Assembly (NCBI RefSeq): GCF_000372725.1
Contig: NW_005202176.1
Coordinates: forward strand, 380,188 to 444,187
Reading direction: 5' to 3'
DNA from: Emiliania huxleyi CCMP1516
Taxonomy: Eukaryota
Length of the DNA stretch: 64,000 nt
Position numbers and translations under genes: made by a program. The notes beneath the pieces are model-generated. The model made no database searches. It saw nothing but the letters and a program-made list of their open reading frames with translations, and was not told the DNA's origin. This document shows, one piece after another, positions 11,109 through 53,600 of the stretch; position 1 is the stretch's first letter, and each line of letters begins with the position of its first letter.

Positions 11109-11113
11109 GACTT

Positions 11114-14061: not shown

Positions 14062-14128
14062 AGATATTTTGACGGATGACCGAAAATGGGCAAAAACGGG
14101 GTGATTTCGGTCATCCGTCAAAATATCT
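14062..14128. repeat. Perfect 24-bp inverted repeat with 19-nt loop
   Basis: AGATATTTTGACGGATGACCGAAA (14062-14085) pairs with TTTCGGTCATCCGTCAAAATATCT (14105-14128). Confidence 0.9.
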
Positions 14129-16774: not shown

Positions 16775-17096
<322 letters not shown>

Positions 17097-17394
17097 CGGC
17101 ACGCACGCGGCACGCGGCACACGGAAGATGCTAGGGCACGGGCGCGACGGGAAAGCCTCCATCCAGTATTGAGAAAGAATAAATCCAGTATTGATTTAGT
17201 CAGGTATACGAGCCTGACACCGGGGACCAGGCAGCGGTGCCGAGGTTTCTTGGCTGTTGGCGGGGGGGGCCTGACACCAGGCAGCGGTGCCGAGGTTTCG
17301 GCCTGTTGGGGGGGGGGGGGGGGGGTTGCTCACATCTCTCCGGCTCGAACGGGGCGGGAAGCAGCCAGCCAACGACATCTCAGCGACATCCGAC

Positions 17395-29667: not shown

Positions 29668-32600
29668 TTACGCCCCCATGTCATCCGAGTTGAGGACGAC
29701 AGGCCCAACACGCCCGCCCTCGAGCCTCTGCCGCGCGGGCACCGCCGGCTGAAGGCAGCCGCGGACGCCCGCGAGCAGCTCGGCGAGCGCGCCCTGCCAC
29801 CCGTCCGCCTTGAGCGAGCCGCCGCCACCGCTGGTTGCGGCGGCGCGGGTCGAGCGAGAGCGCGGCAGCTCCTCCAGCGCCTTGGCCGGCGGCGACGGCG
29901 CGAGGAACTCGGCCGCCATCGCCTTGAACCGCTCGTCGCGGCGCGCGATGCACTGCATCACCACGTCGAAGTGCTGCCCCTCGAGCTCCAGCTCGAGCGC
30001 CGACGCCCCAAACTCGCCGAGCGAGCCCTGGATCTGCACCATCCGCTCGAGCGCGCCGAGCGCCCTCGCGCCGAGCACGCGCTCGAAGTCGTCGCGGATG
30101 TGCGCGAGCGAGGAGCCCTCGTCGAGCATCTTTCGGAAGTCGGACGCGTTCTCGTACTTTGCGAACGCCGCGCGCACCATCGCCGAGCGGCCTCCCGTCA
30201 GCCGGTCGACCACGGCGTCGTCGACGTTGCGCAGCCCTTGCGTCATGAGGAAGCTGAAGTACGCCCCTCGCTCGCTCGCGCGTACCATGAGTATGGCGGG
30301 CTCGCCGCGCTCGCCGGCAAAGGCGAAGGGCCGCGGCGGCTTCGGCGCCCTCCCTCCCCACTCGTCCCACACCAGCTGGATGAGCTGCTTGTGCACAGCG
30401 ATCCGGACGGCGGCGGCGCGCGTCGCCTCCTGCGCCTGCGCGATGCTCGGGCGCGCAGGCAGCGAGGCCTTGGCCAGGACGAAGGCGAGGGCGCCCTCGG
30501 GCGAGCCGCGCACCTCGTCAAGGATCCCCTGCAGGGCCTCGAGCCCGCCCGCGTCGCGCGCGCCGCCGAGCTGGATCGTGGGGCCGATGATGAGCGACTC
30601 GGCCGCCATCGCGAAGCTGATGTGCACGTGGCGCGAGAGCTCGCGCAGGAAGCCCGGCATTGCGCCCGACTCTGGCGGGTCGATGAGCACGAGGCCGCGC
30701 GGCCGCCCGCCGAGGCTCCGCGCGATGAGGGCGACTCTGTGCGCGACCAGCGCGCCGAGCGAGCCGCCGATCAGGTCAAAGGGCGAGTCAGCCAGGTAGG
30801 CGACCAGCTCGGCGGCGTACGCCTCGGAGAGCTGCTGGATGGAGGTCGACCCCTCGACGACGCCACTCCAAAAGGCGGGGTGGCGCAGCGCGATCACCTC
30901 GCGCTCGAGCACGTTGGAGGGCTTGTACCACCGCTCGTAGCCTTGCTCGTCGCCGACGACGCTGTGTGCTATGACGAGCGGCGGCGCAGCCGGCGCCGCG
31001 GCAGGTTTGCCGCACAGCCGCACGAGCGACGGACTGATGTACTCAGCCTGCTCGGCTCCAGCGTGCTCGGTCCGATCCGTGGAGGTGGGCGCAGCGGCCG
31101 TGGCCGACGCCTCGACCGACTCCCCAGCTTGCGCTCCTGGCCCCGCCTCGGGCGGTGCGGCCGTGGCACTCGCGCCAAGGTGCAGAGCGAGGGAGCGCGC
31201 CGTCGGGTGGTCAATGAGCAGCGTGCTCGGCAGCTCGTCGACGCCCGTCGCGTGCTGCAGCTGGGTGCGCAACTCGACCGCGCCGAGCGAGTCGAGCCCC
31301 GCATCTGCGAGAGGGACGTCCGCATCGACGCTGCCACTCATAGCGCCACCGATGATGTCGAGGATAGAGTCGAGGTTGAGCGCCACAGACTTCGTGTAGC
31401 CGCCAGCCGCCTTCTCCTTGAGCAGACGCCGGTTCTTCCACGGCAGGAGCAGGCCGGGCACGGGGCCAGCGGCTCCCCGGCCGAGCAGCAGCGGCCACTC
31501 GGCCGGCCACACCGCCACGACGCGGTCGCACCGCGCCAGCGAGGCGTGAAGGGCGTCCCACGCCATCGCACGCGTGACGGCGCCCATGCCGCTCTTCGTC
31601 GCCCGCTCGTCCGCCCCGTGGCGCGCAGCGTAGCCGATCTCGGCGACGGCGCCCCACTGCGTGCCGAGCCCGCCCAGGCCCGCGTCGCGCCGGCAGTGCA
31701 CCAGCGAGTCGAGCCACGTGTTGGCCGCAGAGTGCGGCGTCGCGGCGGCGTTGCCGATGAGCCCCGCCACCGACGAGTAGGCGTGGAAGTGCTGCAGCGC
31801 GCCGGCGAGGCTGGCCGCGTGCAGCCAGCCCGCGCCGTGCACCTTGGGCGCGAAGACCGTGGCGAAGTGGCCCATCGTCTGGTTGCGCACCGTCGCATCC
31901 GCAAGCAAGCCCGCGGCGTGGTAGACCCCGCACAGCGGCATGCAGCTCTGCTGCACGGCGCCGGCAAGCGCCCGCACAGCGGTGGCGTCAGACACGTCGC
32001 AACGGGCGGGCGACACGGCAACGCGGCTGGTGAGCCACGCCCAGTCCGCCTCGCTGCCGCTCTGCACGCGCCCGCTGCGACACGAAAGCACCAGGTGCTT
32101 CGCGCCACGCCCGACGAGCATGCGTGCCGTCAGCAAGCCGAGCCCGCCGAGCCCACCCGAGAAGAGGTGGGTGCCGCGATCGAGCTCCGCGCGCCGTGCG
32201 CCAGGCGACCGCTCGCCCACCTGGGAGACGATGATCGCCTGCGTCTCGAGCAGCAGGCCGTCGCCGCGCATGCAGTGGGAGCTGGCAAAGCCGCTCGCCG
32301 CCAGGATCTGACGCCAGTGCTCCCACGACAGCAGCGGGCTCGGCTGGTTGGTGCGCTCCGGGTCGCTCGCAAACATCCACCACCCGTCGGTCAGGCCAAA
32401 CGTGGTCTGCAAAAATCCACTCGTTCGAAGCAGCTCATTCAGAAGAAGGAAGCCCCCGTCGCAGAGCAGGCGGCGGCAGTTTCGCAGCGTGTTGCGGATG
32501 AAGGGCGTCGCGTGCAGCACGTTGGTGGCGATGGCGAGGTCGAACGATCCCGAGGCGAAGCCCTGGAGGCGCGAGTCGGCGTCGATGTTGAGCAGCTCAA

Positions 32601-35600
32601 AGCGCATGAAGCCGGCGTACTCGGCAAAGCGCCGCTGCGCCTGGTTGAGGAAGACCTCCGACACGTCGGTGAACATGTACTGCTCGCACACCCGACGCAG
32701 CCGCGGCAGCACGCTCGATGCCGTGCCGCCCGTGCCGGCGCCAACCTCGACGACGCTCAAGAAGCGGCCGGCTGGCAGGCTGGCAATGATGGAGTCGATC
32801 GCGGCCACCACGCACTCGTTGTAGAAGCGAGCGTTGACGGCGTCCTCGTACACGGGCAGCGTCAGCTCCATCGACCCTCCCGGGAAGAGGAGCTCCTGGT
32901 AGGCGACGGTGCCGAGGAGGGCGGCGGCGAGCTGGGAGGCACATCGTTGAGTCAAGCCAACCTCAGGCCAGAGCCGCGGCGACACTGCGAGCACGTCTTC
33001 GTACGATGCGGGCTCTGTGGGCGGCTCGATGGCGGCGCACCACTCATGTAGCAGCCGGTGGTGCCACTTGGGGATGGCAGAAGGGTCCAAACCGCTCAGG
33101 GCGCGGGCGATGTCGTGCCTCACAGCCCTCTCAAGCACCTCGTGGGCGTCCGTCACCTGCGGCAATTCCTCGAGCGCGCGCACCGCGTCCGACACGTGGG
33201 CATCAAGCAGCTCGCAGAGCGGCGCAAACGCCACCGCCAACGAGCTTGGCGCACCCAACCGGACAGGTATCGTGATCACCACCTTGCCGAGGTTTGCGCC
33301 GCCCGAGAGGAACCGGAACGCGTCTCGTGCCTCGCGCTCGATGCCGAAGCTGCGGAGCGGGAGGCCGTGGACCACAACCGCCTCGAGCCGCCGCGCGAGG
33401 ACCTGCAGCACCTCTGCAGAGTACCAGTCAGGGTCGGCGGGGACGTCGAGCGCCATGTCGAGGACGGAATAGGCGCTCGGCACGGCGGCGGCGGCTCGCG
33501 CAAAGCTCCACACGGAGCGCTTCCCGATCTCTTCGAACCGGCCGGCCGGCGCAAGGAGCGCGAAGGAGGTGGAGATGAAGTCCGCGGACAGGCTGTTGAG
33601 CACGCCGTCCAGGCGCCGCCCGCCAAGCTGCGATGCGAGCGAATGCCCGCACGAGGCAGCTTGGCGAGAGCTCGCAGTCGAGCGTACGCCGCAGCACCGC
33701 AGGAGGTGGTGCTTGCGCGGGGCGCCCGCGGTGCCAAAGAGCCGGAGGCGAAGCCACGCGGCGTACTCCGAAGCCGCCAGGCCAACGCCGCCGGCCGTAG
33801 CGTGCACGAGCAGCCGCCGCGAGCCGACGAGCCGGGACCGGACGAACGCCACGTGCACAGTGCACCAGGTGCTGATCAGAGTGGTCGCGGCCTCAAAGCT
33901 CACCGCGCTCGGCTTGCGCACCTGCAATCGCGCGTCGCAGCACACATGCGATGCGAGGCAAGCATTGGAGATACCGAAGCAAGCGTCGCGCTGAGCAATG
34001 TGAGCGACCTGCGAGCCCGCGTGCTCCACCATGCCAGCGCAGTCGGAACCCGGGTCGGCTCGAGGCCCCGGATACTGATCCAAAACGATCAGGACATCCC
34101 GGAAGTTGAGGCCGACCGCATGCACGGCGATGCTGACCTCGGTGGGCGCCACCTCGTTGCCATCGCGGGACGAGTGGTCGCCCCGAGGCTCGAGCTTGAG
34201 GTTCGCGAATGAGCCGCGGGGCTCGCAAGTCAGGACGATCGACTGCAACGCCGCCGGCGATCTCCGCAAGGTCAGCCGGCGAACGTGCATCGAGCCGCCG
34301 CGGAGCGCCGCCTCGTTCTCGGCGGCGGGTCCCACTCGCAGGCCGTGGACGAACCCGTCCTCGGATGCCAGCGCGCGCGAGCGCACGAGCTCGGCCGCGC
34401 CACGCAGCGACTGCGCGCACCCGAAGTCGAGGTCCAGGTTGTACAGCGGCAGCCCGGCTGCCTCTTGCAGACACGCACGCGCAAAGCCCCACAGACCGGC
34501 GTGCTCGCTCGAGCTCCGCCGCACGGAGGCGACGGGCTGGGTCAGGTGCGTGCAGACCCACACCGGCACAGCGGCGGGCAGGTCCATCTGCCACTGCACG
34601 ATGGTCAGCGCCGACGCGATGCTGCCCAGCGCGGCCGCAGCCCGGGGCGGCGCGACGAGGACGACGCCATCGAGAGCGCCGGCCTCGCGCAGCTCCGAGG
34701 CGGACCCGCTCTCCGCGCGCCGAGCGATGCTCCGCCCGAGCGCCGCGGCCAGCGTGCCGCGCCGGTCGCCCACGAGCAAGACGCGGGCCTCCCGGCTCGG
34801 ATCGGCCGCGGCGGAGGCCACCGGAGCCCACTCCGTCGCAAAGTAGCCAACCTTTTCAGTGGCCTTGGTCTCGGGCTTCTGTCGCCAAGCAAAGAGGGTT
34901 CGCTTAAAGCGTAAGGATGGCCCCCACGGGACCGCTACGTCATCGCCAGAGATAGTCAATAGATGGTGCACAATGGTGCCGCTGTACCCAAACGAGCTCA
35001 CGCCGCCGAGCCGAGTGGCGTTGCCGCCCTCCCACGTCGTCGCGAGCTGCGTCTGGTGCAAGACGCGGACGCTCTCGATCGCGGAAGCCACGTGCGGGTT
35101 GAGCACGCGGAGCTGTGCGTTGGGCGACGCCTGATCGGTCACCAGCTTCAGCCCGAGGCGAAGAAGCCCCGCGGCACCGGCAGCCGCTTCGGCATGGCCC
35201 GCGTTGGCCTTGATGCTGCCCACTGCCGTGATGGAACCGTGCCCTGCAAGCAAGGTCGCGGCGAGCGAGCCCACCTCGATCGGGTCGCCGAGCGACGTGC
35301 CAGTGCCGTGCGCCTCGACGCAGCTCAGATCATCGCAGGTCGATCCGGCATCGACGAGCGCTGCCTCAAGGAGCGCCTGCTGCGCCTTGCCGTTTGGCGC
35401 GGTGAGGCTCGCGCTCTTGCCGTCTTGCCGCACGCAGCTCCCGGTGGAGACGAGGGACGACTCCGACTTGGCGTGCGACAGCAGTGTGAGGGCACAGCAG
35501 GACTCGCCACGCGCAAAGCCATCAGCGCGGGCGTCAAAAGTGTGGCAGCGCCCCCGCGCCGACGTCATGCCAGCCGTCGCAAAGCTTGTCCCCAGCGACG

Positions 35601-38600
35601 GCAGAAGCATCAAGCTCACGCCAGCAACAACTCCGCCAGAGCACTCGCCGAGCTGGGTAGCACGCAGTGCCGCGTGACCAGCCGCAAGCGTAGAGGAGCA
35701 GGCAGTGTCATACGACGCGCACGGACCCTGGAGGCCCAAAATGTAGGACAGCCGTCCAGATGCGATCGAGTGGCTGCTACCCGTGGCAGAGTAGACGCTG
35801 CTAGCGAGGGGCGAGTTCGTGACGAGGAATGCAAAGTCCTGCGTTCCAATACCAACGAACACGCCCATGGTTGTGCCAATTAGCGTGGTGCGCTTCAGCC
35901 CGGCACCGTGCAGCGACTCGTAGCCCCGCTCGAGCAAGATGCGCTGCTGCGGATCCATCACTGCCGTCTCGGCCGCGGAGATGCCAAAGCACGCGTTGTC
36001 GAAGCGGTCAATGCCGCGCGCAAACCCACCGTGACGTACTCGGCGAGCGATGAGCTCATCTGGGAACTGCAGCTCGTCTGGGCACCACCGGTCAGCAGGC
36101 ACCTCCGACACCACGTTGCCGCCCGTCGCGGCGACGGCTCGAGCCGCCTCGAGAGTGGTGACGCCCTCCGGAAGGGTGGCAGAGAGGCCGGCGGCGCAAA
36201 CCGCCTCGGCAGCGCGGGCGGAGGCATGCGAGGGCGTGGCGGCGGCGGCTGCCACCGGCGGCGCGCCCTTGTCGCTGAAGAAGGAAGCCAGCTGACGCGC
36301 AGTCGGGTGGTCAAACACCAGAGTGCTCGGCAGTGGCACCGCGTCGCCAGCCGCCCGCTGGAGCTGGTTGCGCAGCTCGACCGCGCCGAGCGAGTCGAGC
36401 CCCGCCTCCATGAGAGGCACGTCCGCGTCGACGCGTGCGCTCATTGTGCCCTGCAAGATCTCGAGCACCCCGTCGAGGCTCAGAAGGGCGGACGAACCCG
36501 CCGTCGCGGCCGGCTGGGTCGCGCTGGCACTCGCCGGAACGCCCGGCGCCGGCGCTGCGCGGGCGCGCTTCGGCGCCGCTCGGCCGCGCCGGTTCTTCCA
36601 CGGCAGGAGCAGGCCGGGCACGGCGCCGGCAGGTGCGCGGCCGAGCAGCAGCGGCCACTCGGCCGGCCACACCGCCACGACGCGGTCGCACCGCGCCAGC
36701 GAGGCGTGAAGGGCGTCCCACGCCATCGCACGCGTGACGGCGCCCATGCCGCTCTTCGTCGCCCGCTCGTCCGCCCCGTGGCGCGCCGCGTAGCCGATCT
36801 CGGCGACGGCGCCCCACTGCGTGCCGAGCCCGCCCAGGCCCGCGTCGCGCCGGCAGTGCACCAGCGAGTCGAGCCACGTGTTGGCCGCAGAGTGCGGCGT
36901 CGCGGCGGCGTTGCCGATGAGCCCCGCCACCGACGAGTAGGCGTGGAAGTGCTGCAGCGCGCCGGCGAGGCTGGCCGCGTGCAGCCAGCCCGCGCCGTGC
37001 ACCTTGGGCGCGAAGACCGTGGCGAAGTGGCCCATCGTCTGGTTGCGCACCGTCGCATCCGCAAGCAAGCCCGCGGCGTGGTAGACCCCGCACAGCGGCA
37101 TACAGCTCTGCTGCACGGCGCCGGCAAGCGCCCGCACAGCGGTGGCGTCAGACACGTCGCAACGGGCGGGCGACACGGCAACGCGGCTGGTGAGCCACGC
37201 CCAGTCCGCCTCGCTGCCGCTCTGCACGCGCCCGCTGCGAGACGAAAGCACCAGGTGCTTCGCGCCACGCCCGACGAGCATGCGTGCCGTCAGCAAGCCG
37301 AGCCCGCCGAGCCCACCCGAGAAGAGGTGGGTGCCGCGATCGAGCTCCGCGCGCCGTGCGCCAGGCGACCGCTCGCCCACCTGGGAGACGATGATCGCCT
37401 GCGTCTCGAGCAGCAGGCCGTCGCCGCGCATGCAGTGGGAGCTGGCAAAGCCGCTCGCCGCCAGGATCTGACGCCAGTGCTCCCACGACAGCAGCGGGCT
37501 CGGCTGGTTGGTGCGCTCCGGGTCGCTCGCAAACATCCACCACCCGTCAGTCAGGCCAAACGTGGTCTGGATAGAACTGCTCGTCCGAAGTGCCTCATTG
37601 ACAAGAAGGAAGCCCCCGTCGCAGAGCAGGCGGCGGCAGTTTCGCAGCGTGTTGCGGATGAAGGGCGTCGCGTGCAGCACGTTGGTGGCGATGGCGAGGT
37701 CGAACGATCCCGAGGCGAAGCCCTGGAGGCGCGAGTCGGCGTCGATGTTGAGCAGCTCAAAGCGCATGAAGCCGGCGTACTCGGCAAAGCGCCGCTGCGC
37801 CTGGTTGAGGAAGACCTCCGACACGTCGGTGAACATGTACTGCTCGCACACCCGACGCAGCCGCGGCAGCACGCTCGATGCCGTGCCGCCCGTGCCGGCG
37901 CCAACCTCGACGACGCTCAAGAAGCGGCCGGCTGGCAGGCTGGCAATGATGGAGTCGACCGCGGCCACCACGCACTCGTTGTAGAAGCGGGAGTGAACTG
38001 CGTCCTCGTACACGGGCAGCGTCAGCTCCATGGACCCTCCCGGGAAGAGGAGCTCCTGGTAGGCGACGGTGCCGAGGAGGGCGGCGGCGAGCTGGGAGGC
38101 ACATCGTTGAGTCAAGCCAACCTCAGGCCAGAGCCGCGGCGACACTGCGAGCACGTCTTCGTACGATGCGGGCTCTGTGGGCGGCTCGATGGCGGCGCAC
38201 CACTCATGTAGCAGCCGGTGGTGCCACTTGGGGATGGCAGAAGGGTCCAAACCGCTCAGGGCGCGGGCGATGTCGTGCCTCACAGCCCTCTCAAGCACCT
38301 CGTGGGCGTCCGTCACCTGCGGCAAGTCCTCGAGCGCGCGCACCGCGTCCGACACGTGGGCATCAAGCAGCTCGCAGAGCGGCGCAAACGCCACCGCCAA
38401 CGAGCTTGGCGCACCCAACCGGACAGGTATCGTGATCACCACCTTGCCGAGGTTTGCGCCGCCCGAGAGGAACCGGAACGCGTCTCGTGCCTCGCGCTCG
38501 ATGCCGAAGCTGCGGAGCGGGAGGCCGTGGACCACAACCGCCTCGAGCCGCCGCGCGAGGACCTGCAGCACCTCTGCAGAGTACCAGTCAGGGTCGGCGG

Positions 38601-41600
38601 GGACGTCGAGCGCCATGTCGAGGACGGAATAGGCGCTCGGCACGGCGGCGGCGGCTCGCGCAAAGCTCCACACGGAGCGCTTCCCGATCTCTTCGAACCG
38701 GCCGGCCGGCGCAAGGAGCGCGAAGGAGGTGGAGATGAAGTCCGCGGACAGGCTGTTGAGCACGCCGTCCAGGCGCCGCCCGCCAAGCTGCGATGCGAGC
38801 GAATGCCCGCACGAGGCAGCTTGGCGAGAGCTCGCAGTCGAGCGTACGCCGCAGCACCGCAGGAGGTGGTGCTTGCGCGGGGCGCCCGCGGTGCCAAAGA
38901 GCCGGAGGCGAAGCCACGCGGCGTACTCCGAAGCCGCCAGGCCAACGCCGCCGGCCGTAGCGTGCACGAGCAGCCGCCGCGAGCCGACGAGCCGGGACCG
39001 GACGAACGCCACGTGCACAGTGCACCAGGTGCTGATCAGAGTGGTCGCGGCCTCAAAGCTCACCGCGCTCGGCTTGCGCACCTGCAATCGCGCGTCGCAG
39101 CACACATGCGATGCGAGGCAAGCATTGGAGATACCGAAGCAAGCGTCGCGCTGAGCAATGTGAGCGACCTGCGAGCCCGCGTGCTCCACCATGCCAGCGC
39201 AGTCGGAACCCGGGTCGGCTCGAGGCCCCGGATACTGATCCAAAACGATCAGGACATCCCGGAAGTTGAGGCCGACCGCATGCACGGCGATGCTGACCTC
39301 GGTGGGCGCCACCTCGTTGCCATCGCGGGACGAGTGGTCGCCCCGAGGCTCGAGCTTGAGGTTCGCGAATGAGCCGCGGGGCTCGCAAGTCAGGACGATC
39401 GACTGCAACGCCGCCGGCGATCTCCGCAAGGTCAGCCGGCGAACGTGCATCGAGCCGCCGCGGAGCGCCGCCTCGTTCTCGGCGGCGGGTCCCACTCGCA
39501 GGCCGTGGACGAACCCGTCCTCGGATGCCAGCGCGCGCGAGCGCACGAGCTCGGCCGCGCCACGCAGCGACTGCGCGCACCCGAAGTCGAGGTCCAGGTT
39601 GTACAGCGGCAGCCCGGCTGCCTCTTGCAGACACGCACGCGCAAAGCCCCACAGACCGGCGTGCTCGCTCGAGCTCCGCCGCACGGAGGCGACGGGCTGG
39701 GTCAGGTGCGTGCAGACCCACACCGGCACAGCGGCGGGCAGGTCCATCTGCCACTGCACGATGGTCAGCGCCGACGCGATGCTGCCCAGCGCGGCCGCAG
39801 CCCGGGGCGGCGCGACGAGGACGACGCCATCGAGAGCGCCGGCCTCGCGCAGCTCCGAGGCGGACCCGCTCTCCGCGCGCCGAGCGATGCTCCGCCCGAG
39901 CGCCGCGGCCAGCGTGCCGCGCCGGTCGCCCACGAGCAAGACGCGGGCCTCCTGGCTCGGATCGGCCGCGGCGGAGGCCACCGGAGCCCACTCGCACGCG
40001 TAGGACCAGTCGGCGGCCGGGGCAGCCTTGCCGGCGGCCGAGGCAGCCTTGCCGGCGGCGCCCTTCTTGAGCACACGGCTCTCGAAGTGGTCGAGCCTCG
40101 TCGCCTTCCCGAGGCCAGACAGGACGACGTCAGCCGTGGAGGCGCCTCGCCGGCTCAGCATCGCGACCATGTTGCCGTGCAAGCCGCTGAGCGCCGCCTC
40201 TGCCACCGAGAAGGGGAGTCGAGTCTCGCTCGAGCGCTCGCGCTCCATCAGAATCGAGGCCTGCAGCGCGCCGTCAAGGTCCGCGGGGTGGAGGAGAGTG
40301 CCCTCGAGGCACGCCTTGCGTCGGGGGCGCAGAGACGCGATCGCCGTGCCCGAGAGAGCCGACGCCCAGCCCTGAGCGAGCGTCTGGAAGGCGCGGCCGT
40401 ACTCGAGCCCAACGGCGCGGAAGTCGCCGTAGATCCGAGCTGCATCGGCGGCGTGCGGGCAGCACGCGCGCTGCGCTGGCGCGGCGAGCGACCGCGCGCC
40501 CGCCGCGCCTCCCGCCCCGCCACCCGAGGGTGACGCCGCGCAATGCACCATCCGCTCGGCGAGGGCGGCGCCCGCGCCGCTGCGAATCTCAAGACTGTCG
40601 AGCGCACCCGACACCTCGCACTCGATGTGCTGGTCGGCAGCCGGCTCCACCACGCAGGGCTGCATGAAGAGGACGCGGCGCAGATGGCACGCACGGCTGC
40701 CCGCGTAAAGCGTGCTCGCCTGGCATGCGGCCCGCGCCAGCTCGAGATAGCCGGCCGCGGGGAAGATGACGCGGCCTTGCACGACGTGGTCGGCCATGAG
40801 GGCAACTAGCCGGCCCCGGGCCGGCGAGCGGAAGAGGTGGGCCTCGCCGGCGCGGCCCGGCTGCTGCGCCAGCGGGTGCAGCTCGTCCTGCCACGAGAAG
40901 CGCTGCCTGCGGTAGACCAAGCCCGGAGCGGACGGCGGCCGCGCCGGCTCGCCCGCGCGGGCCGAGCACGAGAGGACGGCGTGGACGATGGTGCCGCTGT
41001 AGCCAAAGGAGGAGACGCCTCCCACTGCCACCAACCCGCGCTCCCGCTGCAACCGCTGCGTAGGCAGTATGGCGCTCGGTCCTGCACCCCCACCGAGATG
41101 CTCAGAGACGAGCTCGTTCATCACCCGGAGCTGCGCGTTGCCAGCGCAGTCAGCCGACAAGACGTGAAGGGCCTTGCAGATGCCGAACAGCCCAGACATT
41201 GGCTCCGCGTGGCCGACATTTGCCTTGAGCGCCCCAACAGCGACGTGCCCCGGAGCCGCGCGGAAGAGGTGCGACAAGGCGCCGCTCTCGATCGGGTCGC
41301 CGAGCGCCGTGCCTGTGCCGTGCGCCTCAATCGATGCGACAGCAGCCGCGGTGACCGACGCGCGAGACAGGGCAGCGTTCATCAGCACCCGCTGGGCGGA
41401 GCCGTTTGGCGCAGTCAGGCTCGCGCTGCGTCCATCCTGCCGCACCGCGCTGCCAAGCAGAAGCCGGGCGGGAGCTCCCTCGCAAATAGCGTCACGTGTG
41501 AGGACGATCGCGCCGACGCCCTCCGCCCGGACAAACCCGTTGGCACTCCTGTCGTAGGTCTTGCAGCGGGCGTCGGGAGAAAGCATTCCCGCAGCGGCAA

Positions 41601-44600
41601 CTCGTAGGGTCACAAGAGGCGACAGCTTCAGCGTCACAGACGCGACCAACGCCAGCGCGCACTCGGTATTGCGCATGGCGCTGGCGGCGCTGTGCTGCGC
41701 ACTGAGTGCCGAAGAGCAAGCAGTGTCGAGGCTCATGCAGGGCCCCATCAGCCCCAAGCAGAAGGAGATGCGCCCCGCGGCAACGGAGTTGGTGTCGGCA
41801 GTCACGGCATAGACAGAGGCTGCGGCTTGTGGCGACTGCATCCGGGTCCAATCTGGCCGCTCCATCCCAACGTATACGCCGGTGTCTGTGCCGAGCAGCG
41901 AGTCGCGTCGCAAGCCGTGGCCGTGGAAGGCCTGATAGCTGAGCTCAAGGAGCAGCCGCTGCTGCGGGTCCATGGCAGCGCCCTCAGTGGGCGAGATGGC
42001 GAAGAGGGCGCTGTCGAACAGCTCAGCTTTGCACACAAACCCACCGCTGCCTGCAGCCGCCGCCTGCACGTCGCTGATTGAGCCGATGTCCACGTGCTCG
42101 CTGAGCACCCATCGCACGCGGGGCACTGCGCGGATGCCGTCCCCGCTCGCTTCGAAGCTCGCCATTGCTTCACCGATCGCCTCGGCTCCTCCTGGCCAGC
42201 GCGCGACATCCCCACCTGAGATCGAGATGGCTTTCTCCGCCGCTGCAGGCGACGCACTGGCAGTGGCAATCGGCCGGTTTGCGCCCGAGCAGCGCAGCTC
42301 TTCTAGCAGATGCGATGCGAGGGCTCGGGGAGTCGGGTGGTCGAACACCATTGTTGGCGACACCGCGACGCCCGTTAGATCGCGCAGGCGCGAGGCGAGC
42401 TCCGTTGCGGCTAGCGAGTCGATGCCAGCCTCCATCAGCGGCGTGGCGGCGCCGATGGCTTCGACGTCGCTCAGCTTGCGCACCGTCTCCAAAACGGCCT
42501 CCTCCATTCTCGTCGCTCTGACCGCTGGCGTCAACGTCGCCAGCTCCTGGCTAAAGTTGCTTCCGCACGCATTCTCAGTGCCAGAGGCTGCAGAGCTAGA
42601 CACGGCGGCGCGCAGCTCCGACAGGAGAGGAACGTCTGCGCTGGGCACGCCCTCGAGCATGCGTGCGGTGGCCGTGGGCAGTGGCAATCGCACGGCCACG
42701 GCCGCATTGCTGAGCACCGACTGGAGTACGGCCTCGTACTCGACGAGAGAGATGGCAAGCATGCCTCGGAAGGACATCTGCCCTTTGGAGAAGGCAGCGG
42801 CTCCGATTCCGACGCCCTGCACGAGCGGGAACTGCACGCTGCTGGCGACGCACCCGCGGCTGCCCAAGTGGGCGGCCAACACGTCCAAGCACGAGTTGGC
42901 CGAGGCGTAGCTCGCTTGCCCGGCGCCGCCGAGCATGGCAGCGACAGACGAGTAGAGCAAGAATCCCCGCAACGGTGCCGTCGTCGTGCAGGCGTGAAGA
43001 AGCCTTGCGCTGTCGACTTTGGCCGCAAAGACGGCGTGCACGCGCGGCGCGAGGATGTCGGCGAGCAGACCCTTGTCGGCCACGCCTGCTGCATGCAGGA
43101 CATGGGCGGTCCCACCGGCCGTGGCTCCAAGCAGCGCCTTGACATCGGCCGGCTTGCTCGCGTCGCACGCCAGGACAGCCACATGCTTCGCCGAGTCTCG
43201 CAGAGATTGCAGCATGTCGTGCAGGCCTTGGCCGTCGCGCACCACAGCGCCGCTGCGAGAGGTGAGCAGAATCGACGAGGCAGAGCGAGCAAAGAGCAGC
43301 GCCGCCTTGAGCCCGAGACCACCAAGGCCGCCAGTCACAACGACGGAACTTCTCTGCCTGGACGGACCGGCCAAAGTCGAGGTTTTCGTCACGCCGCCCC
43401 CACGGCGGAGGCGGGCCACAAACCTCGAGGCACCGACGTAGGCTGCAGCGGAGTCGTGCGCCGCCGCGGAAAGCGCAGCTGTGAAGAATGAGCGTGCTGC
43501 CTCCTCCGCGGCCGGCGTGGCGCGGGGGAGATCGACGAGTCCGAGCCGCAGCTGGGGCCGCTCGAGCTGGAGGACTCTGCCGACGCCCCACGAGCCACAC
43601 CCTCCGAGGATGGAGCCGGGCTGGACGACGCGTGGCGCGGCGACAACCTCGCCGCTGGTGCAGACGATGATCTGGGGGGGCGGCTGCAGATTGACCAGGC
43701 GCTGGAGAAGAGTGATCAGAGGGGCGGCCGTGGTGTCGCCCTCCCCGCCGGGGCAGATGACCACGGCGGCCCACTGCCCGGCTGCGCTGGCCCCCGCCTC
43801 CAAGTCAGCCTTCTCCACCTGCAGCCTAGCCTGGACAAGCGCTCTCCCGACAAGCGAAATCCCCTGGTGGGGAGCGAGCAGAAGGCAGCGGCCAGAGACG
43901 GTAGCCGCCTGAAGCGCGCTGCGGGAGCGGACCCACGCAGCTTGGTAGCTTGAAAGCGAGGCCTCGGTGCTGGTAGGCGACGAGGAGCGCCACTTGAACG
44001 ACTTGTGGCGGTAGCTGTAACGGCGTGTGAACGAGGTGGACGGGGCCACCGTCAGCGCTGATGCAGCAGCGACGACATGCACAATGGTGCCGCTGTACCC
44101 AAACGAGCTCACGCCGCCGAGCCGAGTGGCGTTGCCGCCCTCCCACGTCGTCGCGAGCTGCGTCTGGTGCAAGACGCGGACGCTCTCGATCGCGGAAGCC
44201 ACGTGCGGGTTGAGCACGCGGAGCTGTGCGTTGGGCGACGCCTGATCGGTCACCAGCTTCAGCCCGAGGCGAAGAAGCCCCGCGGCACCGGCAGCAGGCT
44301 CGGCATGGCCCGCGTTGGCCTTGATGCTGCCCACTGCCGTGATGGAACCGTGCCCTGCAAGCAAGGTCGCGGCGAGCGAGCCCACCTCGATCGGGTCGCC
44401 GAGCGACGTGCCAGTGCCGTGCGCCTCGACGCAGCTCAGATCATCGCAGGTCGATCCGGCATCGACGAGCGCTGCCTCAAGGAGCGCCTGCTGCGCCTTG
44501 CCGTTTGGCGCGGTGAGGCTCGCGCTCTTGCCGTCTGATCGCACGCAGCTACCCGCCAAGGAGAGGTGGCCCATCCCCGTGCGCAAGGTGAGGGCACAGC

Positions 44601-47600
44601 ACGCCTCAGCACGAGCATAGCCGTCAGCGCGGGCGTCAAAAGTGTGGCAGCGCCCCCGCGCCGACGTCATGCCAGCCGTCGCAAAGCTATAGCTAACTCG
44701 GGGCAAAAGAAGCAGGCTGATGCCAGCGACCAAGTTGTCGACGCTTTCGGCATGCCGTGTCGCACGCACCGCCGCATGGCATGCGGTGAGAGTAGAGGAG
44801 CAGGCAGTGTCATACGACGCGCACGGACCCTGGAGGCCCAAAATGTAGGACAGCCGTCCAGATGCGATCGAGTGGCTGCTACCCGTGGCGGAGTAGACGC
44901 TGCCCCCTGCGGGAGATTTCGAGAGAATCTCGGCGAAGTCGTTGGCGGCGATGCCAATGAAAATCCCGGTGACGCTCCCTAGCAGGCTGGACTTGGGAAG
45001 TCCAGCACCGTGTAGCGACTCGTAGCCCCGCTCGAGCAAGATGCGCTGCTGCGGATCCATCGAAGCCGCCTCCACCGCGGAGATGCCAAAGTGGCCGTTA
45101 TCGAACAGGTCGGCCGCTCGGACAAACGCTCCGTGGCAAACGCGCTGAGCAACTGCAGCGGAAACGTTGCTGGCCTCTAGCGTCCACCGGTCTGCAGGCA
45201 CCTCCGACACCACGTTGCCGCCCGTCGCGGCGACGGCTCGAGCCGCCTCGAGAGTGGTGACGCCCTCCGGAAGGGTGGCAGAGAGGCCGGCGGCGCAAAC
45301 CGCCTCGGCAGCGCGGGCGGAGGCATGCGAGGGCGTGGCGGCGGCGGCTGCCACCGGCGGCGCGCCCTTGTCGCTGAAGAAGGAAGCCAGCTGACGCGCA
45401 GTCGGGTGGTCAAACACCAGAGTGCTCGGCAGTGGCACCGCGTCGCCAGCCGCCCGCTGGAGCTGGTTGCGCAGCTCGACCGCGCCGAGCGAGTCGAGCC
45501 CCGCCTCCATGAGAGGCACGTCCGCGTCGACGCGTGCGCTCATTGTGCCCTGCAAGATCTCGAGCACCCCGTCGAGGCTCAGAAGGGCGGACGAACCCGC
45601 CGTCGCGGCCGGCTGGGTCGCGCTGGCACTCGCCGGAACGCCCGGCGCCGGCGCTGCGCGGGCGCGCTTCGGCGCCGCTCGGCCGCGCCGGTTCTTCCAC
45701 GGCAGGAGCAGGCCGGGCACGGCGCCGGCAGGTGCGCGGCCGAGCAGCAGCGGCCACTCGGCCGGCCACACCGCCACGACGCGGTCGCACCGCGCCAGCG
45801 AGGCGTGAAGGGCGTCCCACGCCATCGCACGCGTGACGGCGCCCATGCCGCTCTTCGTCGCCCGCTCGTCCGCCCCGTGGCGCGCAGCGTAGCCGATCTC
45901 GGCGACGGCGCCCCACTGCGTGCCGAGCCCGCCCAGGCCCGCGTCGCGCCGGCAGTGCACCAGCGAGTCGAGCCACGTGTTGGCCGCAGAGTGCGGCGTC
46001 GCGGCGGCGTTGCCGATGAGCCCCGCCACCGACGAGTAGGCGTGGAAGTGCTGCAGCGCGCCGGCGAGGCTGGCCGCGTGCAGCCAGCCCGCGCCGTGCA
46101 CCTTGGGCGCGAAGACCGTGGCGAAGTGGCCCATCGCCTGGTTGCGCACCGTCGCATCCGCAAGCAAGCCCGCGGCGTGGTAGACCCCGCACAGCGGCAT
46201 GCAGCTCTGCTGCACGGCGCCGGCAAGCGCCCGCACAGCGGTGGCGTCAGACACGTCGCAACGGGCGGGCGACACGGCAACGCGGCTGGTGAGCCACGCC
46301 CAGTCCGCCTCGCTGCCGCTCTGCACGCGCCCGCTGCGAGACGAAAGCACCAGGTGCTTCGCGCCACGCCCCACGAGCATGCGTGCCGTCAGCAAGCCGA
46401 GCCCGCCGAGCCCACCCGAGAAGAGGTGGGTGCCGCGATCGAGCTCCGCGCGCCGTGCGCCAGGCGACCGCTCGCCCACCTGGGAGACGATGATCGCCTG
46501 CGCCTCTAGGACGTAGCCGTCGCCGCGCATGCAGTGGGAGCTGGCAAAGCCGCTCGCCGCCAGGATCTGACGCCAGTGCTCCCACGACAGCAGCGGGCTC
46601 GGCTGGTTGGTGCGCTCCGGGTCGCTCGCAAACATCCACCACCCGTCGGTCAGGCCAAACGTGGTCTGCAAAAATCCATTCGTTCGAAGCAGCTCATTCA
46701 GAAGAAGGAAGCCCCCGTCGCAGAGCAGGCGGCGGCAGTTTCGCAGCGTGTTGCGGATGAAGGGCGTCGCGTGCAGCACGTTGGTGGCGATGGCGAGGTC
46801 GAACGATCCCGAGGCGAAGCCCTGGAGGCGCGAGTCGGCGTCGATGTTGAGCAGCTCAAAGCGCATGAAGCCGGCGTACTCGGCAAAGCGCCGCTGCGCC
46901 TGGTTGAGGAAGACCTCCGACACGTCGGTGAACATGTACTGCTCGCACACCCGACGCAGCCGCGGCAGCACGCTCGATGCCGTGCCGCCCGTGCCGGCGC
47001 CAACCTCGACGACGCTCAAGAAGCGGCCGGCTGGCAGGCTGGCAATGATGGAGTCGACCGCGGCCACCACGCACTCGTTGTAGAAGCGAGCGTTGACGGC
47101 GTCCTCGTACACGGGCAGCGTCAGCTCCATGGACCCTCCCGGGAAGAGGAGCTCCTGGTAGGCGACGGTGCCGAGGAGGGCGGCGGCGAGCTGGGAGGCA
47201 CATCGTTGAGTCACGCCAACCTCAGGCCAGAGCCGCGGCGACACTGCGAGCACGTCTTCGTACGATGCGGGCTCTGTGGGCGGCTCGATGGCGGCGCACC
47301 ACTCATATAGCAGCCGGTGGTGCCACTTGGGGATGGCAGAAGGGTCCAAACCGCTCAGGGCGCGGGCGATGTCGTGCCTCACAGCCCTCTCAAGCACCTC
47401 GTGGGCGTCCGTCACCTGCGGCAAGTCCTCGAGCGCGCGCACCGCGTCCGACACGTGGGCATCAAGCAGCTCGCAGAGCGGCGCAAACGCCACCGCCAAC
47501 GAGCTTGGCGCACCCAACCGGACAGGTATCGTGATCACCACCTTGCCGAGGTTTGCGCCGCCCGAGAGGAACCGGAACGCGTCTCGTGCCTCGCGCTCGA

Positions 47601-50600
47601 TGCCGAAGCTGCGGAGCGGGAGGCCGTGGACCACAACCGCCTCGAGCCGCCGCGCGAGGACCTGCAGCACCTCTGCAGAGTACCAGTCAGGGTCGGCGGG
47701 GACGTCGAGCGCCATGTCGAGGACGGAATAGGCGCTCGGCACGGCGGCGGCGGCTCGCGCAACGCTCCACACGGAGCGCTTCCCGATCTCTTCGAACCGG
47801 CCGGCCGGCGCAAGGAGCGCGAAGGAGGTGGAGATGAAGTCCGCGGACAGGCTGTTGAGCACGCCGTCCAGGCGCCGCCCGCCAAGCTGCGATGCGAGCG
47901 AATGCCCGCACGAGGCAGCTTGGCGAGAGCTCGCAGTCGAGCGCACGCCGCAGCACCGCAGGAGGTGGTGCTTGCGCGGGGCGCCCGCGGTGCCAAAGAG
48001 CCGGAGGCGAAGCCACGCGGCGTACTCCGAAGCCGCCAGGCCAACGCCGCCGGCCGTAGCGTGCACGAGCAGCCGCCGCGAGCCGACGAGCCGGGACCGG
48101 ACGAACGCCACGTGCACAGTGCACCAGGTGCTGATCAGAGTGGTCGCGGCCTCAAAGCTCACCGCGCTCGGCTTGCGCACCTGCAATCGCGCGTCGCAGC
48201 ACACATGCGATGCGAGGCAATTCTTCGCCTGACCGAAGCAAGCGTCGCGCTGAGCAATGTGAGCGACCTGCGAGCCCGCGTGCTCCACCATGCCAGCGCA
48301 GTCGGAACCAAGCGTGCCAAGGTACTCCGACGGAAGTTCACCCAACGCATCCAGGACATCCCGGAAGTTGAGGCCGACCGCATGCACGGCGATGCTGACC
48401 TCGGTGGGCGCCACCTCGTTGCCATCGCGGGACGAGTGGTCGCCCCGAGGCTCGAGCTTGAGGTTCGCGAATGAGCCGCGGGGCTCGCAAGTCAGGACGA
48501 TCGACTGCAACGCCGCCGGCGATCTCCGCAAGGTCAGCCGGCGAACGTGCATCGAGCCGCCGCGGAGCGCGGCCTCGTTCTCGGCGGCGGGTCCCACTCG
48601 CAAGCCGTGGACGAACCCGTCCTCGGATGCCAGCGCGCGCGAGCGCACGAGCTCGGCCGCGCCACGCAGCGACTGCGCGCACCCGAAGTCGAGGTCCAGG
48701 TTGTACAGCGGCAGCCCGGCTGCCTCTTGCAGACACGCACGCGCAAAGCCCCACAGACCGGCGTGCTCGCTCGAGCTCCGCCGCACGGAGGCGACGGGCT
48801 GGGTCAGGTGCGTGCAGACCCACACCGGCACAGCGGCGGGCAGGTCCATCTGCCACTGCACGATGGTCAGCGCCGACGCGATGCTGCCCAGCGCGGCCGC
48901 AGCCCGGGGCGGCGCGACGAGGACGACGCCATCGAGAGCGCCGGCCTCGCGCAGCTCCGAGGCGGACCCGCTCTCCGCGCGCCGAGCGATGCTCCGCCCG
49001 AGCGCCGCGGCCAGCGTGCCGCGCCGGTCGCCCACGAGCAAGACGCGGGCCTCCTGGCTCGGATCGGCCGCGGCGGAGGCCACCGGAGCCCACTCGCACG
49101 CGTAGGACCAGTCGGCGGCCGGGGCAGCCTTGCCGGCGGCCGAGGCAGCCTTGCCGGCGGCGCCCTTCTTGAGCACACGGCTCTCGAAGTGGTCGAGCCT
49201 CGTCGCCTTCCCGAGGCCAGACAGGACGACGTCAGCCGTGGAGGCGCCTCGCCGGCTCAGCATCGCGACCATGTTGCCGTGCAAGCCGCTGAGCGCCGCC
49301 TCTGCCACCGAGAAGGGGAGTCGAGTCTCGCTCGAGCGCTCGCGCTCCATCAGAATCGAGGCCTGCAGCGCGCCGTCAAGGTCCGCGGGGTGGAGGAGAG
49401 TGCCCTCGAGGCACGCCTTGCGTCGGGGGCGCAGAGACGCGATCGCCGTGCCCGAGAGAGCCGACGCCCAGCCCTGAGCGAGCGTCTGGAAGGCGCGGCC
49501 GTACTCGAGCCCAACGGCGCGGAAGTCGCCGTAGATCCGAGCTGCATCGGCGGCGTGCGGGCAGCACGCGCGCTGCGCTGGCGCGGCGAGCGACCGCGCG
49601 CCCGCCGCGCCTCCCGCCCCGCCACCCGAGGGTGACGCCGCGCAATGCACCATCCGCTCGGCGAGGGCGGCGCCCGCGCCGCTGCGAATCTCAAGACTGT
49701 CGAGCGCACCCGACACCTCGCACTCGATGTGCTGGTCGGCAGCCGGCTCCACCACGCAGGGCTGCATGAAGAGGACGCGGCGCAGATGGCACGCACGGCT
49801 GCCCGCGTAAAGCGTGCTCGCCTGGCATGCGGCCCGCGCCAGCTCGAGGTAGCCGGCCGCGGGGAAGATGACGCGGCCTTGCACGACGTGGTCGGCCATG
49901 AGGGCAACTAGCCGGCCCCGGGCCGGCGAGCGGAAGAGGTGGGCCTCGCCGGCGCGGCCCGGCTGCTGCGCCAGCGGGTGCAGCTCGTCCTGCCACGAGA
50001 AGCGCTGCCTGCGGTAGACCAAGCCCGGAGCGGACGGCGGCCGCGCCGGCTCGCCCGCGCGGGCCGAGCACGAGAGGACGGCGTGGACAATGGTGCCGCT
50101 GTAGCCAAAGGAGGAGACTGCACCGTACATAAGACCCGACTGCCCGTGACCCACGTTGCTTGGTGCCGTGGGTAGTCCGCAAGGCACGATGGAGAGCACA
50201 TCGTGGACGTGGGGGTTCACTCTCCGGAGCTGCGCGTTCGGCGACGTCGCGGAGCCTTGCAATGCAAGCACCAACGCCTGAAACCCGCTGAATCCAGCGC
50301 CAGGCTCGGCGTGGCCCGCGTTGGCCTTGAGGCTCCCGACAGTCGTCTGTGCCGCGCCCTCCTTGGCGGCAGGAACAAAGACGCTCGTCGATAGACTCCG
50401 CATCTCGATCGGGTCGCCCAGCGCGGTTCCCGTCCCGTGTGCCTCCTCCACTTGCACGTCCGCAGCGCGCACCCCCGCCCGCGCTATCGCCGCGCTGATC
50501 AGACGGCACTGCGCCTGACCGTTCGGGGCGGTGAGGCTAGCACTCCGTCCATCGCAGCGGACAGTCACGCCAGCGACCGCGCATCGGCTCCTCTGGCCCT

Positions 50601-53600
50601 CGTCTTGCGGCTCGAAGACCGCCGCGCCGCAAGAGTCAGCGCGCACGTAGCCATCCGCCCTCTCGTCGAAGGTGTGGCACTTGCCTCGAGGCGATGTCAT
50701 GCCCGCGATCGCGAACGCCTGGTGGACGTCGGTCACGAGCATCACGTTGACCGCCAGGACCACCGCCTCGCGGCACTCGCCGAGCTGCAGAGTGCCGCAC
50801 GCCAGATTGGTGGCCGTCAGCCCTGCGGAGCAGGCGGTGTCGACTTGCGTGCAAGGTCCCTGCATGCCAAGCGCGAAGGAGAGCCTCCCAGCTGCTACGG
50901 ACTGGCTGCTGCCGGTGGCAGCGTAGACGGAGCGCCACGCGTCCGACTGGAGGAGCACCCTCGAGAAGTCTTGGCACGAGAGCGCCAGGAAGACTCCGGT
51001 CTCCCGGCCCAGGAGCGAGGCGCGCAGAAGCCCTGCGGCGTGCAAAGCCGCGTAGCCGTGCTCGAGGCACAGGCGCTGCTGTGGGTCCATGGCAAACGCC
51101 TCGCTCTTCGAGACAGAGAAGGCGGATGCGTCGAAGAGGTCAGCCTGGCGGAGGAAAGCTCCGTACCTCATCCGGCTGCACACCACATCGTCCAGTCCGC
51201 CAGCGACCGCGTCGGCGACAGCGCTTCCCACGTCCCACCGTTCCAGCGGGACCTCGGCAGCGACGTCTCCGCAAGAAGCAAGGACCAGTGAAAATGTGTG
51301 CTGCGTAGCAACGCCCGCCGGTAGGCGAACGCTGCTCCCGACCAGCGTCTGTGATGACGAGGTCATCACTGGCGGCGCGAGGCCCAACTCAGAGCCCGGG
51401 TTCTCCTCCGGCGCCTGCACCAGCGCAGAGATGGCGCGGACGGTCGGCGCGTCGAAAATGAAAGTCGACGGCAGCTCCAACCCATCGCCGGCTGCGCGCT
51501 GCAGCTGGTTGCGCAGCTCGACGGCGCCGAGTGAGTCCAAGCCCGCTTCCATGAGAGGCTTGTCCGGGTCGAGCTCAGCCCCCGCGACTCCCTGCGCAAT
51601 TCGCAGTACTTGCTCCATCGGAAGCTGGTTGGTCAAGGTCGAGCTTGCACCACGAGCGGTGGCGGCGGGCTTGAACCTGTCAAGCAGCAGTGGGACGGCG
51701 GGTAGAGACTCCAAGAACCGATCCCAATCGGTGAGAAACAGCGCAAACACGGCCGGCTCGCGAGCGCTGAGCGCCGCGACCAGACCGGCCGCCCCCTCCT
51801 GCAAGCTGATCTGCCGTAGGCCAGACGCCTGTAAGCGTGCACTCACCGCGCTGCCCGCCGCCATACCCACGTCCGCCCACGGGCCCCACTGCACGCTCGA
51901 CGCCGCCAGCCCGTCGCCGCGCCGCCGAGCCGACAGCGCGTCGAGGCAGCAGTTGGCCGCGCTGTAGTTCGACTGGCCCGCGCCAAACAGGGCAGCCATC
52001 GACGAGAAGAGCACGAACGAGTCGAGCGGCGCAGCGGCGCACGCGCTCTGCAGGCACCACGCGCCGCCCGCCTTGGGCGCGTACACGCGGCGCAGCGACG
52101 CCGCCGTCTGCGAGCGCAGCAGCCCGTCCGACAGCACGCCCGCCGCGTGCCACACGCCGCGCCAATCCCGCACGCCCACGAGACGGCGCACGTCGGCAGG
52201 CTCCGACGCGTCGCAGCGAGCCGCGAGCAAGGCACACGAGGCCACCGACCCCGCCGATGTGTCCGCCTGCGCCGCGCCCACTCGCCCGCTGCGCGAGGAG
52301 AGCACCACCGCCGACGCGCCTCGGCCGACCAGCCAGCCCGCGGTCACAAAAGCCAGGCCCCCGCTCCCGCCCGTCACGATGTGCGACCCGTGCGCGCTCT
52401 GCTCGAGGAAGGCCACGCGGAGCACCACCTTCCCGGAGTTTGAGCCGCTCTGCAGGTACCGGAACGCCGCGACCGCCTCGCTCTCCAGGTCGAAGAGCTC
52501 CAGCGGCAGCCCGTGCAACACGAGCCGCCGGGCCCGCGCCGCCAGCTGGCGCAGCGCATGTTGGGTCCACTCCGGAGCGTGCTCCATCGTCGCGTCGAGC
52601 GCAAGCACCTCGTAGCGCAGATGCGCCGCCGACGACCACGCCCGCGCCGACGACCACACGCCGCGCTTGCCGATCTCGGCGAAGGTGCCGCCCTCGCGAG
52701 CCAGCGCCACCGAACAGGCGATGAAGTCGCCGGAGAGGCTGTTGAGCACGCAATCCAACCGCCGCGAGCGCAAGGCCGCCAAGCCCGAAGCGTACGCGCC
52801 GCCGTCGCGCGAGCTGCCCATCCCCCCCTCCAGGCCCAGTGCGCGCAGAACGCGGTGCTTGCGTGGCCGCCCCGCGGTCGTGCCAGTCGCTAGCCGAAGC
52901 CAGTGGCTGTACTCCACAGCCGCAAAGCCAACTCCGCCCGCGCCCGCATGCACGAGCAGCCGGTGCCGGGCCAGCGGACGCGAGCCGCAAAACGCGGCAT
53001 GCACCGTGCTCCACACCGTCGGCAGAGTGCACGCCGAGGCGGGCGACAGCTCCGCCGGCCGCGCCGCCAGCAGCCGCACGTCAGCGCGGGCGAGCGAGGC
53101 AAGCGCCGCCACCGCGTGGCCAAGCACACACCCGCCAACCGCCAGCTCCGCCCCCGCCGCCGCGCCGAGAGCCGCCACGCGCGCCGCACAATCCGAGCCG
53201 GGCGCACCCGGGTCGCCGGGGTACGCACCCAGCACGTTGAGCACGTCGCGAAAGTTGAGGCCGACGCACCACACCCGCAACGAAGCCTCGCCGTCCGCCG
53301 CTACGCCGCTCCCGACCGGCTGCGGCACCACGCGCAAACTCGTCAGCGAGCCCCGCGCGTCAAAGCGAAGCGCGATGGGGCACGAAAGCGAGCACGCCGC
53401 AGCGACGAGCCGAGGCGCGAGAGCGACGTCGCCCACGAGGCGCAGCTCCGGCTCGGCCAAGCCCTGGAGGGCCAGCGCCGCCGCCGCCGGCTCCACGAGG
53501 GACACCGCCGCCGCGCCAGAGAGCGCAAGACAACCGAGCGGCGCCGATGGCGCCTCGCTCCGCGCCGACCGCGCGAGTCCCAGCAAGCCGGGCTGGTGCT

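Follow-up and report, generated by a model that had tools for sequence, protein, structure and literature searches.

Giant modular polyketide synthases (PKSs) without integral acyltransferase (AT) domains are found in haptophytes, and two described systems resemble the gene analysed here, which lies on a stretch of 64,000 bases of contig NW_005202176.1 (positions 380,188 to 444,187; hereafter the window). PKZILLA-1/-2 from Prymnesium parvum, as described in the preprint (bioRxiv 10.1101/2024.01.29.577497), are likewise giant haptophyte trans-AT PKSs with ligase-acyl carrier protein (ACP) loading and a C-terminal thioesterase (TE), but comprise 56 modules, a single methyltransferase (MT) and a polyether product; moreover, they contain non-elongating ketosynthase (KS) units that finish reduction, whereas all six KSs in the window keep the Cys, His and His motifs of the elongating type. 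EhuPKS7 (Perez Gallego et al. 2026, PMC13508280) is also AT-less and built mostly of KS-dehydratase (DH)-enoylreductase (ER)-ketoreductase (KR)-ACP modules, with a DH-less KS-MT-KR-ACP-TE end in the domain string tabulated in PMC4661987; unlike the window gene, it is described with 13 modules, no inner MT and no terminal ER. The published entry that the window gene matches is EhuPKS6 (JGI 632068; Shelest et al. 2015, PMC4661987 supplementary file 2), given there as ligase-ACP followed by seven modules and a TE. Its DH-less ER-MT-KR end has been in print since 2015, and the table entry consists of the domain string alone, including no His-type KR, TE insert, gene conversion or product. On balance, and with considerable reserve, we favour the reading that this seven-module AT-less PKS ends by releasing a 3-hydroxy acid or ester.

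The gene is a single open reading frame (ORF):

29668..63999, minus strand: giant AT-less modular PKS ORF, from the ORF list, Pfam and motifs, with the domain order of EhuPKS6

The ORF encodes at least 11,443 residues, running from past position 63999 down to the stop at 29668, and is open at the window edge. The domain order, DH-ER-KR-ACP, two KS-DH-ER-KR-ACP, KS-DH-ER-MT-KR-ACP, KS-KR-ACP, KS-DH-ER-MT-KR-ACP and KS-ER-MT-KR-ACP-TE, is identical to that published for EhuPKS6 over seven modules, including the terminal one, and matches none of the other 11 E. huxleyi PKS rows of the same table (PMC4661987). On the strength of this architecture the ORF is most likely EhuPKS6; the name derives from domain order, sequence comparison having given no named match, and the ligase-ACP N-terminus, lying beyond the window, is taken from the published string. 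The host is thereby most likely an alkenone producer, in line with the initial annotation, the domain order being that of EhuPKS6 of Emiliania huxleyi. The gene has the build of a modular type I PKS of the trans-AT type, with no AT family matched by Pfam in any of the four ORF pieces and no GHSxG motif; a separate AT for malonyl supply was not seen among the seven neighbouring ORFs scanned.

The terminal module, in the order of the assembly line, comprises the following elements:

34966..36204, minus strand: KS of the last module, with DTACS, EAHGTG and GHAE intact (motifs; bounds approximate)
34834..34965, minus strand: short DH-less linker (57 versus 342 residue spacing; junction bridged by a contig; similar linker in the orthologue L001)
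34240..34833, minus strand: structural KR half, 197 of 198 residues identical to the inner copies (self-comparison)
33259..34239, minus strand: ER, 327 of 327 residues identical to the ER of the previous module (self-comparison)
32173..33258, minus strand: C-methyltransferase with the S-adenosylmethionine (SAM) motif, His (32512-32514) and Glu intact (motifs)
31426..32172, minus strand: catalytic KR half with GGLGGLG, Lys, Ser, His in place of Tyr (31732-31734) and Asn, and Tyr in place of the lid Met (31630-31632) (motifs, alignment)
31180..31380, minus strand: ACP, Ser at 31288-31290 (Pfam; bounds approximate)

Pfam, motifs and alignment confirm the earlier observation that this module lacks a DH and keeps ER, MT and His-KR before the TE. 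No DH family was matched in the last 2,200 residues, in which KS, ER-type, MT, KR, ACP and TE were found, and the three upstream pieces do contain DH families. Only 57 residues separate the KS end motif from the structural KR, compared with 342 in the two inner MT modules, leaving the last module short of about 285 residues where the inner ones place their DH. An assembly artefact was considered and rejected, as a 193-base X3 contig (34804-34996) bridges the DH-less junction. Contigs of the independent runs X10 and X9 share one variant base within this junction, and a 2,931-base X3 contig runs from the KR through the TE as far as the stop codon. Since the module has no DH, the terminal ER has no in-module enoyl substrate, as had been pointed out. 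The terminal KS is 82% identical to that of the KS-KR module, and both come after the same kind of upstream module. No sulfotransferase family precedes the TE in the last 2,200 residues, setting this end apart from the CurM-type, olefin-forming sulfotransferase-TE layout.

In the catalytic half of the terminal KR the His takes the alignment position of the catalytic Tyr in AmpKR2, and the lid has Tyr where Met is usual; even so, the NADPH motif, Lys, Ser, Asn and lid are complete and match the inner copies. The review PMC7327777 mentions occasional replacement of the KR Tyr by His. The same His occurs in both inner MT modules, so the His-KR is not particular to the last module, and the idea that it marks a dead, terminal-only KR was rejected, given that the inner modules and relatives carry it too. 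Of the 249 residues of the terminal catalytic KR, four depart from the inner copy (98% identity to the inner His-KRs). One difference, Cys for the inner Ser at position 32081, before the NADPH-binding Arg, is either strain-private or an error, Ser being present in all four runs compared at this site. Because it is near-identical to inner His-KRs that stand beside intact DH and ER domains, the terminal KR is likely active; the initial annotation had named precisely an active terminal KR, yielding a hydroxy acid, as an outcome incompatible with ketone release.

A wider sample is consistent with a reducing His-KR. Metagenome contigs were scanned, and 17 loci (L001-L016, L019), chosen by rank and identity, were examined from the 80 kept out of 218 confirmed; the His-KR count leaves out L003 and L019 (KR cut short), L002 (ending in the MT), L013 and L014 (Tyr-type KR) and L015 and L016 (ordinary PKS modules). 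Eleven further His-KRs were collected, two in the window, two in protein P0017 and seven in L004, L005 and L007-L011, representing about five lineages on a quick KR tree. Pro-His, Lys, Ser and the lid GY motif are conserved in all 11, the Asn in nine. Five are preceded by a DH with both catalytic motifs (the two in the window and those of P0017, L009 and L011), four have an ER in the same module, and two hand over to a non-elongating KS-ER-ACP unit, which requires an enoyl substrate. The His-KR is thus a conserved haptophyte form that occurs next to intact DH and ER domains, and is likely an active reductase in the terminal module. Were it a non-reducing epimerase or scaffold throughout, modules 4, 6 and 7 would leave 2-methyl-3-oxo units, leading to a polyketone or pyrone-like ring, or the TE would transfer or cyclise the chain in another way. 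The missing catalytic Tyr and the frequency of reductase-dead KRs (PMC7327777) give this some footing, but it sits poorly with intact DH and ER domains in the same modules and with the non-elongating KS-ER units downstream, and epimerising C2 KRs keep Tyr and lose Asn, the opposite pattern (PMC7327777); we consider it improbable. A literature search from which subscription journals were largely missing returned no paper on a haptophyte His-KR, a PKS6 product or SAM-derived ethyl alkenones.

Two further arrangements were observed among the His-KR loci: (i) non-elongating KS (AANGS)-ER-ACP units after MT-His-KR modules (L010:2920-5458; P0017 residues 4228-5080), resembling the saturating bimodules of PKZILLA, and (ii) a His-KR-ACP whose release domain is a serine hydrolase of the FSH1 type (L008:2043-2504).

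Self-comparison of the ORF places the terminal ER-MT-KR block in a family of three near-identical copies, the two inner ones being:

36587..39993, minus strand: inner structural KR-ER-MT-KR block of module 6, differing from the terminal block at 31 of 3,407 bases
45686..49095, minus strand: second inner block, of module 4, 98.4% identical to the terminal block

Between the terminal block and that of module 6, the previous module (99.1% identity), 18 of the 31 mismatches fall in two short MT stretches and 6 at the block edge. L001, an orthologous end of another organism (TE 61% identical), reads KS-MT-KR-ACP-TE with neither DH nor ER, and the DH-less ends P0139/P0205, L012 and L006 also lack an ER. 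Given this near-identity (99.1%) to an inner module and the lack of an ER in the orthologue, the terminal ER is likely an idle passenger of gene conversion, and the simplest history is likely that an old DH-less end was overwritten by an inner block: an ancestral KS-MT-KR-ACP-TE end would have received both an ER and a complete KR from the inner module. The ER of module 4 has Leu at the stereo-control site, where the other two have Tyr; the corresponding Tyr rule is given in section 9 of PMC7327777. Separately, the MT of module 6 (37560-38000) has its own residue set, HSRFYN and NEAL, which recurs in an inner MT of the orthologue L002 (10003-11026), and terminal MTs share NARFYN and NELL; such sets suggest module-specific selection. 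In L002 the module-6-like MT is combined with a module-4-type ER, indicating blocks either shuffled or mis-phased.

The release domain is a TE with two helical insertions:

29860..31017, minus strand: type I thioesterase, Ser-Asp-His, with a helical lid at about 30355-30654 (Pfam, alignment, structure model, fold comparison)
30025..30270, minus strand: second helical insert of about 75-80 residues, predicted to form six helices and lying directly ahead of the His, between the final two core strands (model mean pLDDT 92; alignment)

The triad comprises Ser 30760, Asp 30679 and His 29971. The long Asp-His spacing noticed earlier (roughly 230 residues) measures 236, because the second insert lies just before the His. 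In the structure model (mean pLDDT 92, 40 sequences) the domain adopts an α/β-hydrolase fold in which the Asp is followed by a helical lid and the His strand is directly preceded by a second insert, of six helices; the predicted placement of Ser, of Asp after strand 6 and of His after strand 8 is that of a type I thioesterase. The nearest solved folds are PKS and non-ribosomal peptide synthetase thioesterases, with matches at Z 19.5 (root-mean-square deviation, rmsd, 3.8; 263 aligned) and Z 18.8 (rmsd 4.3; 273 aligned). Solved type I PKS TEs (GbnD6 TE, 9f7b; oocydin TE, 7r0x; Pks13 TE) share the hydrolase core and the Ser-Asp-His triad, and differ in that about 110-120 of the 386 residues of the window TE remain unaligned to them, the model placing the second helical insert before the His strand.

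A TE search of 1.84 billion representatives gave 69 matches; an atlas comparison returned generic thioesterase clusters only. Where the pattern caught both Asp and His (most other matches being fragments or unmatched), the spacing is 236-248 in four (P0001, P0137, P0139, P0140) and 144-168 in 11; a further match, which contains low-complexity sequence, has 207. Among the metagenome loci the spacing is 236 in L001, 246 in L012 and 140 in L006. By this measure the long-insert TE is a small conserved family, not a one-off. With 11 of the 20 inner branches of the TE tree open, the long insert may have arisen once or more than once; the group formed by the Tisochrysis lutea TE, L012 and P0141 is supported at 100/99. 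The long insert was also considered as a marker of ketone release, and this was not upheld: P0140 carries a long TE behind a non-elongating KS-ACP, and L006 combines a dead KR with a short TE.

The methylation and hydroxylation pattern of the predicted product depends on the inner modules, including:

42280..45300, minus strand: KS-KR-ACP module 5, with a normal Tyr-type KR (motifs; bounds approximate)

In the hydroxy-acid reading, the ligase-ACP known from the published string would load a carboxylic acid starter, modules 1-3 would each add a saturated unit, modules 4 and 6 units that are both saturated and methylated, and module 5 would leave a hydroxyl. Numbered from the carboxyl end, modules 7, 6 and 4 would methylate C2, C4 and C8, module 5 would account for a C7 hydroxyl, and module 7 would set C3. 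The last module would add two carbons, methylate C2 and, with the ER idle, reduce C3 to the hydroxyl, the His of the terminal KR acting as general acid, perhaps aided by the lid Tyr. The chain would then be freed by the TE as a long 2,4,8-trimethyl-3,7-dihydroxy fatty acid or the corresponding ester, with the extra helical insert shaping a pocket for the long chain or a lipid surface. In each of the three MTs the SAM motif, His and Glu are intact.

Several points weigh against this picture. The distinct residue set of the module 6 MT, seen also in L002, makes the number of methyls unsure; the direction of conversion rests on two orthologues; and near-identical blocks could be mis-phased in the assembly, a phase that short contigs cannot resolve. 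Furthermore, both orthologous ends have decaying KRs (P0001 has lost His and Asn; L001 keeps His and has lost the lid motif), so that selection in this lineage may have favoured a 3-oxo end, and the TE may prefer a 3-oxo chain. More broadly, in five other terminal MT-KR modules (L001, P0001, P0139, L012, L006) the lid motif is lost in all, the His in four and the NADPH motif in three; L001 and P0001 carry PKS6-type TEs, the TEs of P0139 and L012 belong to a second group and that of L006 is short, the long form being present in four of the five. The five decayed KRs fall into two groups on the quick KR tree and do not represent five independent events. Ends of this family accordingly tend to be non-reducing, the complete KR of the window being the exception.

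These relatives bear directly on the ketone-forming release proposed in the initial annotation, according to which a 3-oxo acid would leave the enzyme and lose CO2; with an idle KR the window gene would be predicted to yield a 4,8-dimethyl-7-hydroxy ethyl ketone (4,8-dimethyl-7-hydroxy-alkan-3-one type), the His-KR being slow, idle or outrun by the long TE. PpsA-E, the mycobacterial phthiodiolone synthase, is a model for such an outcome, extending a ligase-loaded fatty acid to a hydroxylated, methyl-branched chain with a 4-methyl-3-one terminus, and differs in its cis-AT domains, methylmalonyl units and lack of a TE of the window kind. In the engineered LipPks1(KR-dead)-EryTE, as reported in PMC12814521 and PMC7327777, a non-reducing last module with an ordinary TE produces an ethyl ketone by way of a 3-oxo acid, but there the KR was inactivated (that of the window is likely active), the methyl comes from methylmalonyl-CoA and not SAM, the chain is short and decarboxylation was brought about by heating. 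The proposal holds, then, insofar as ends with long TEs and decayed KRs exist in relatives (four of the five decayed terminal modules); for the window gene itself it is countered by a terminal KR that is complete and 98% identical to inner copies which must feed DH and ER. The insert, as described above for P0140 and L006, is no ketone marker, and no decarboxylase feature was identified in the TE model. We regard branched ketone release from this gene as unlikely, though a credible second to the hydroxy acid; the chemistry plausibly fits the sister enzymes better.

A link to alkenones, which are unbranched (PMC13508280), was suggested earlier together with the objection that inner MT and KR-only modules argue against it, and here the objection prevails, the catalytic residues being intact. 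An alkenone synthase would have to leave C4-C15 of the 3-oxo acid unbranched and free of hydroxyl, and the window gene has two inner MTs with His and Glu in place and a Tyr-type KR-only module. Its seven modules supply 14 carbons, so reaching C37-C39 would take a C24 starter already bearing both trans double bonds; in addition, two MTs would have to be silent and the C7 hydroxyl lost. An incompatible module count was among the refuting outcomes named in the initial annotation, and the seven modules with their inner MTs and KR-only module point that way. In favour, the host is most likely an alkenone producer, and in strain CCMP2758 a gene labelled PKS6 is up at 7 °C and down over time like PKS7 (PMC13508280 Table S23); however, PKS2 and PKS9 share that expression pattern in this strain, PKS6 shows no temperature response in CCMP1742, and the published proposal is the 13-module PKS7 (PMC13508280). 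That the window gene makes C37-C39 methyl and ethyl ketones is, to our minds, highly improbable.

PKS7 was put forward as the alkenone synthase in 2026, with methylmalonyl-CoA as the source of the ethyl ketones, in an article whose main text contains no occurrence of 'thioesterase' or 'decarboxyl' (PMC13508280). PKS7-like ends were found here in P0139/P0205 of T. lutea and in L012, with dead KRs and a TE only about 34% identical to that of the window. Tisochrysis lutea is an alkenone producer. P0139 clusters with a T. lutea protein and has the layout KS-MT-dead KR-ACP-long TE; the same layout occurs in L012:1-5700, where the MT His is intact. The codon use of L012 is closest to that of the window among seven loci (r 0.97-0.98; next 0.96), a weak hint that it is a candidate E. 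huxleyi PKS7 terminus, and it carries an intron repeat of a kind typical of E. huxleyi. A named PKS7 end was sought in two ways: a protein search with P0139 gave only itself above 31% identity among 120 matches, and a metagenome scan with an alignment of PKS7-type TEs gave none among 598 candidates. At L006:5478-10900, a DH-less KS-MT-dead KR-ACP with a short conventional TE follows a KS-DH-ER-KR module, and represents a candidate ketone or 3-oxo-acid end.

On the motifs seen in these ends, a terminal SAM-dependent MT could be an alternative to methylmalonyl-CoA for ethyl ketones; in the terminal MT of T. lutea the catalytic His is replaced by Tyr, which counts against a SAM-dependent ethyl route there. 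A joint scheme may tentatively be drawn, doubtful when taken as a whole: the long-insert TE would be a dedicated releaser, perhaps a decarboxylase, of very long 3-oxo chains; PKS7-type KS-MT-dead KR-ACP-TE ends (P0139/P0205, L012) would make the alkenone ketone, methyl if the MT is skipped and ethyl if SAM methylates C2; and PKS6 would be a sister line for a branched ketone, switched to a hydroxy acid in E. huxleyi by gene conversion.

Upstream in the ORF, whole modules are repeated in tandem:

51844..64000, minus strand: tandem whole-module repeats KS-DH-ER-KR-ACP, 4,800 bases, 99.4% identical (self-comparison)

The copy number of these repeats may vary and set the chain length. Hidden extra modules were considered; contig depth over the 4.8-kb repeat is about 1.5-5 times that of single-copy parts (four runs), compared with about 2.6-3 times over the three-copy MT, a weak hint, depth not being equal to copy number. 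Beside the PKS, the genes at 12262-29378 are housekeeping-like (hydroxyproline arabinosyltransferase, RPA large subunit, NHL-BTB and ankyrin proteins), and no cluster of tailoring genes was seen in that interval. One neighbouring protein clusters with an NCBI record and six transcriptome records. At 8896-11111, 18 kb from the PKS end, overlapping minus-strand frames carry DUF6817 and TauD dioxygenase domains and are perhaps one spliced gene. E. huxleyi produces C31 and C33 alkenes. EhuPKS8 ends, in the table of PMC4661987, as KS-KR-ACP-(P-loop domain)-TE, like the sulfotransferase-TE layout of terminal-alkene release.

The window gene, whose outline is already in print, probably does not encode the alkenone synthase. 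Its interest lies in three aspects: (i) a conserved haptophyte KR clade, with His at the Tyr site and Tyr in the lid, which motif-based tools could miscall as dead, leading to wrong product predictions; (ii) a last module apparently rewritten from an inner one, a natural case of repeat homogenisation altering an assembly line; and (iii) a long-insert TE that also ends PKS7-like enzymes with dead KRs, pointing to MT-KR-ACP-TE as a small expressible unit for the methyl/ethyl ketone question in alkenones, the main sea-temperature proxy.

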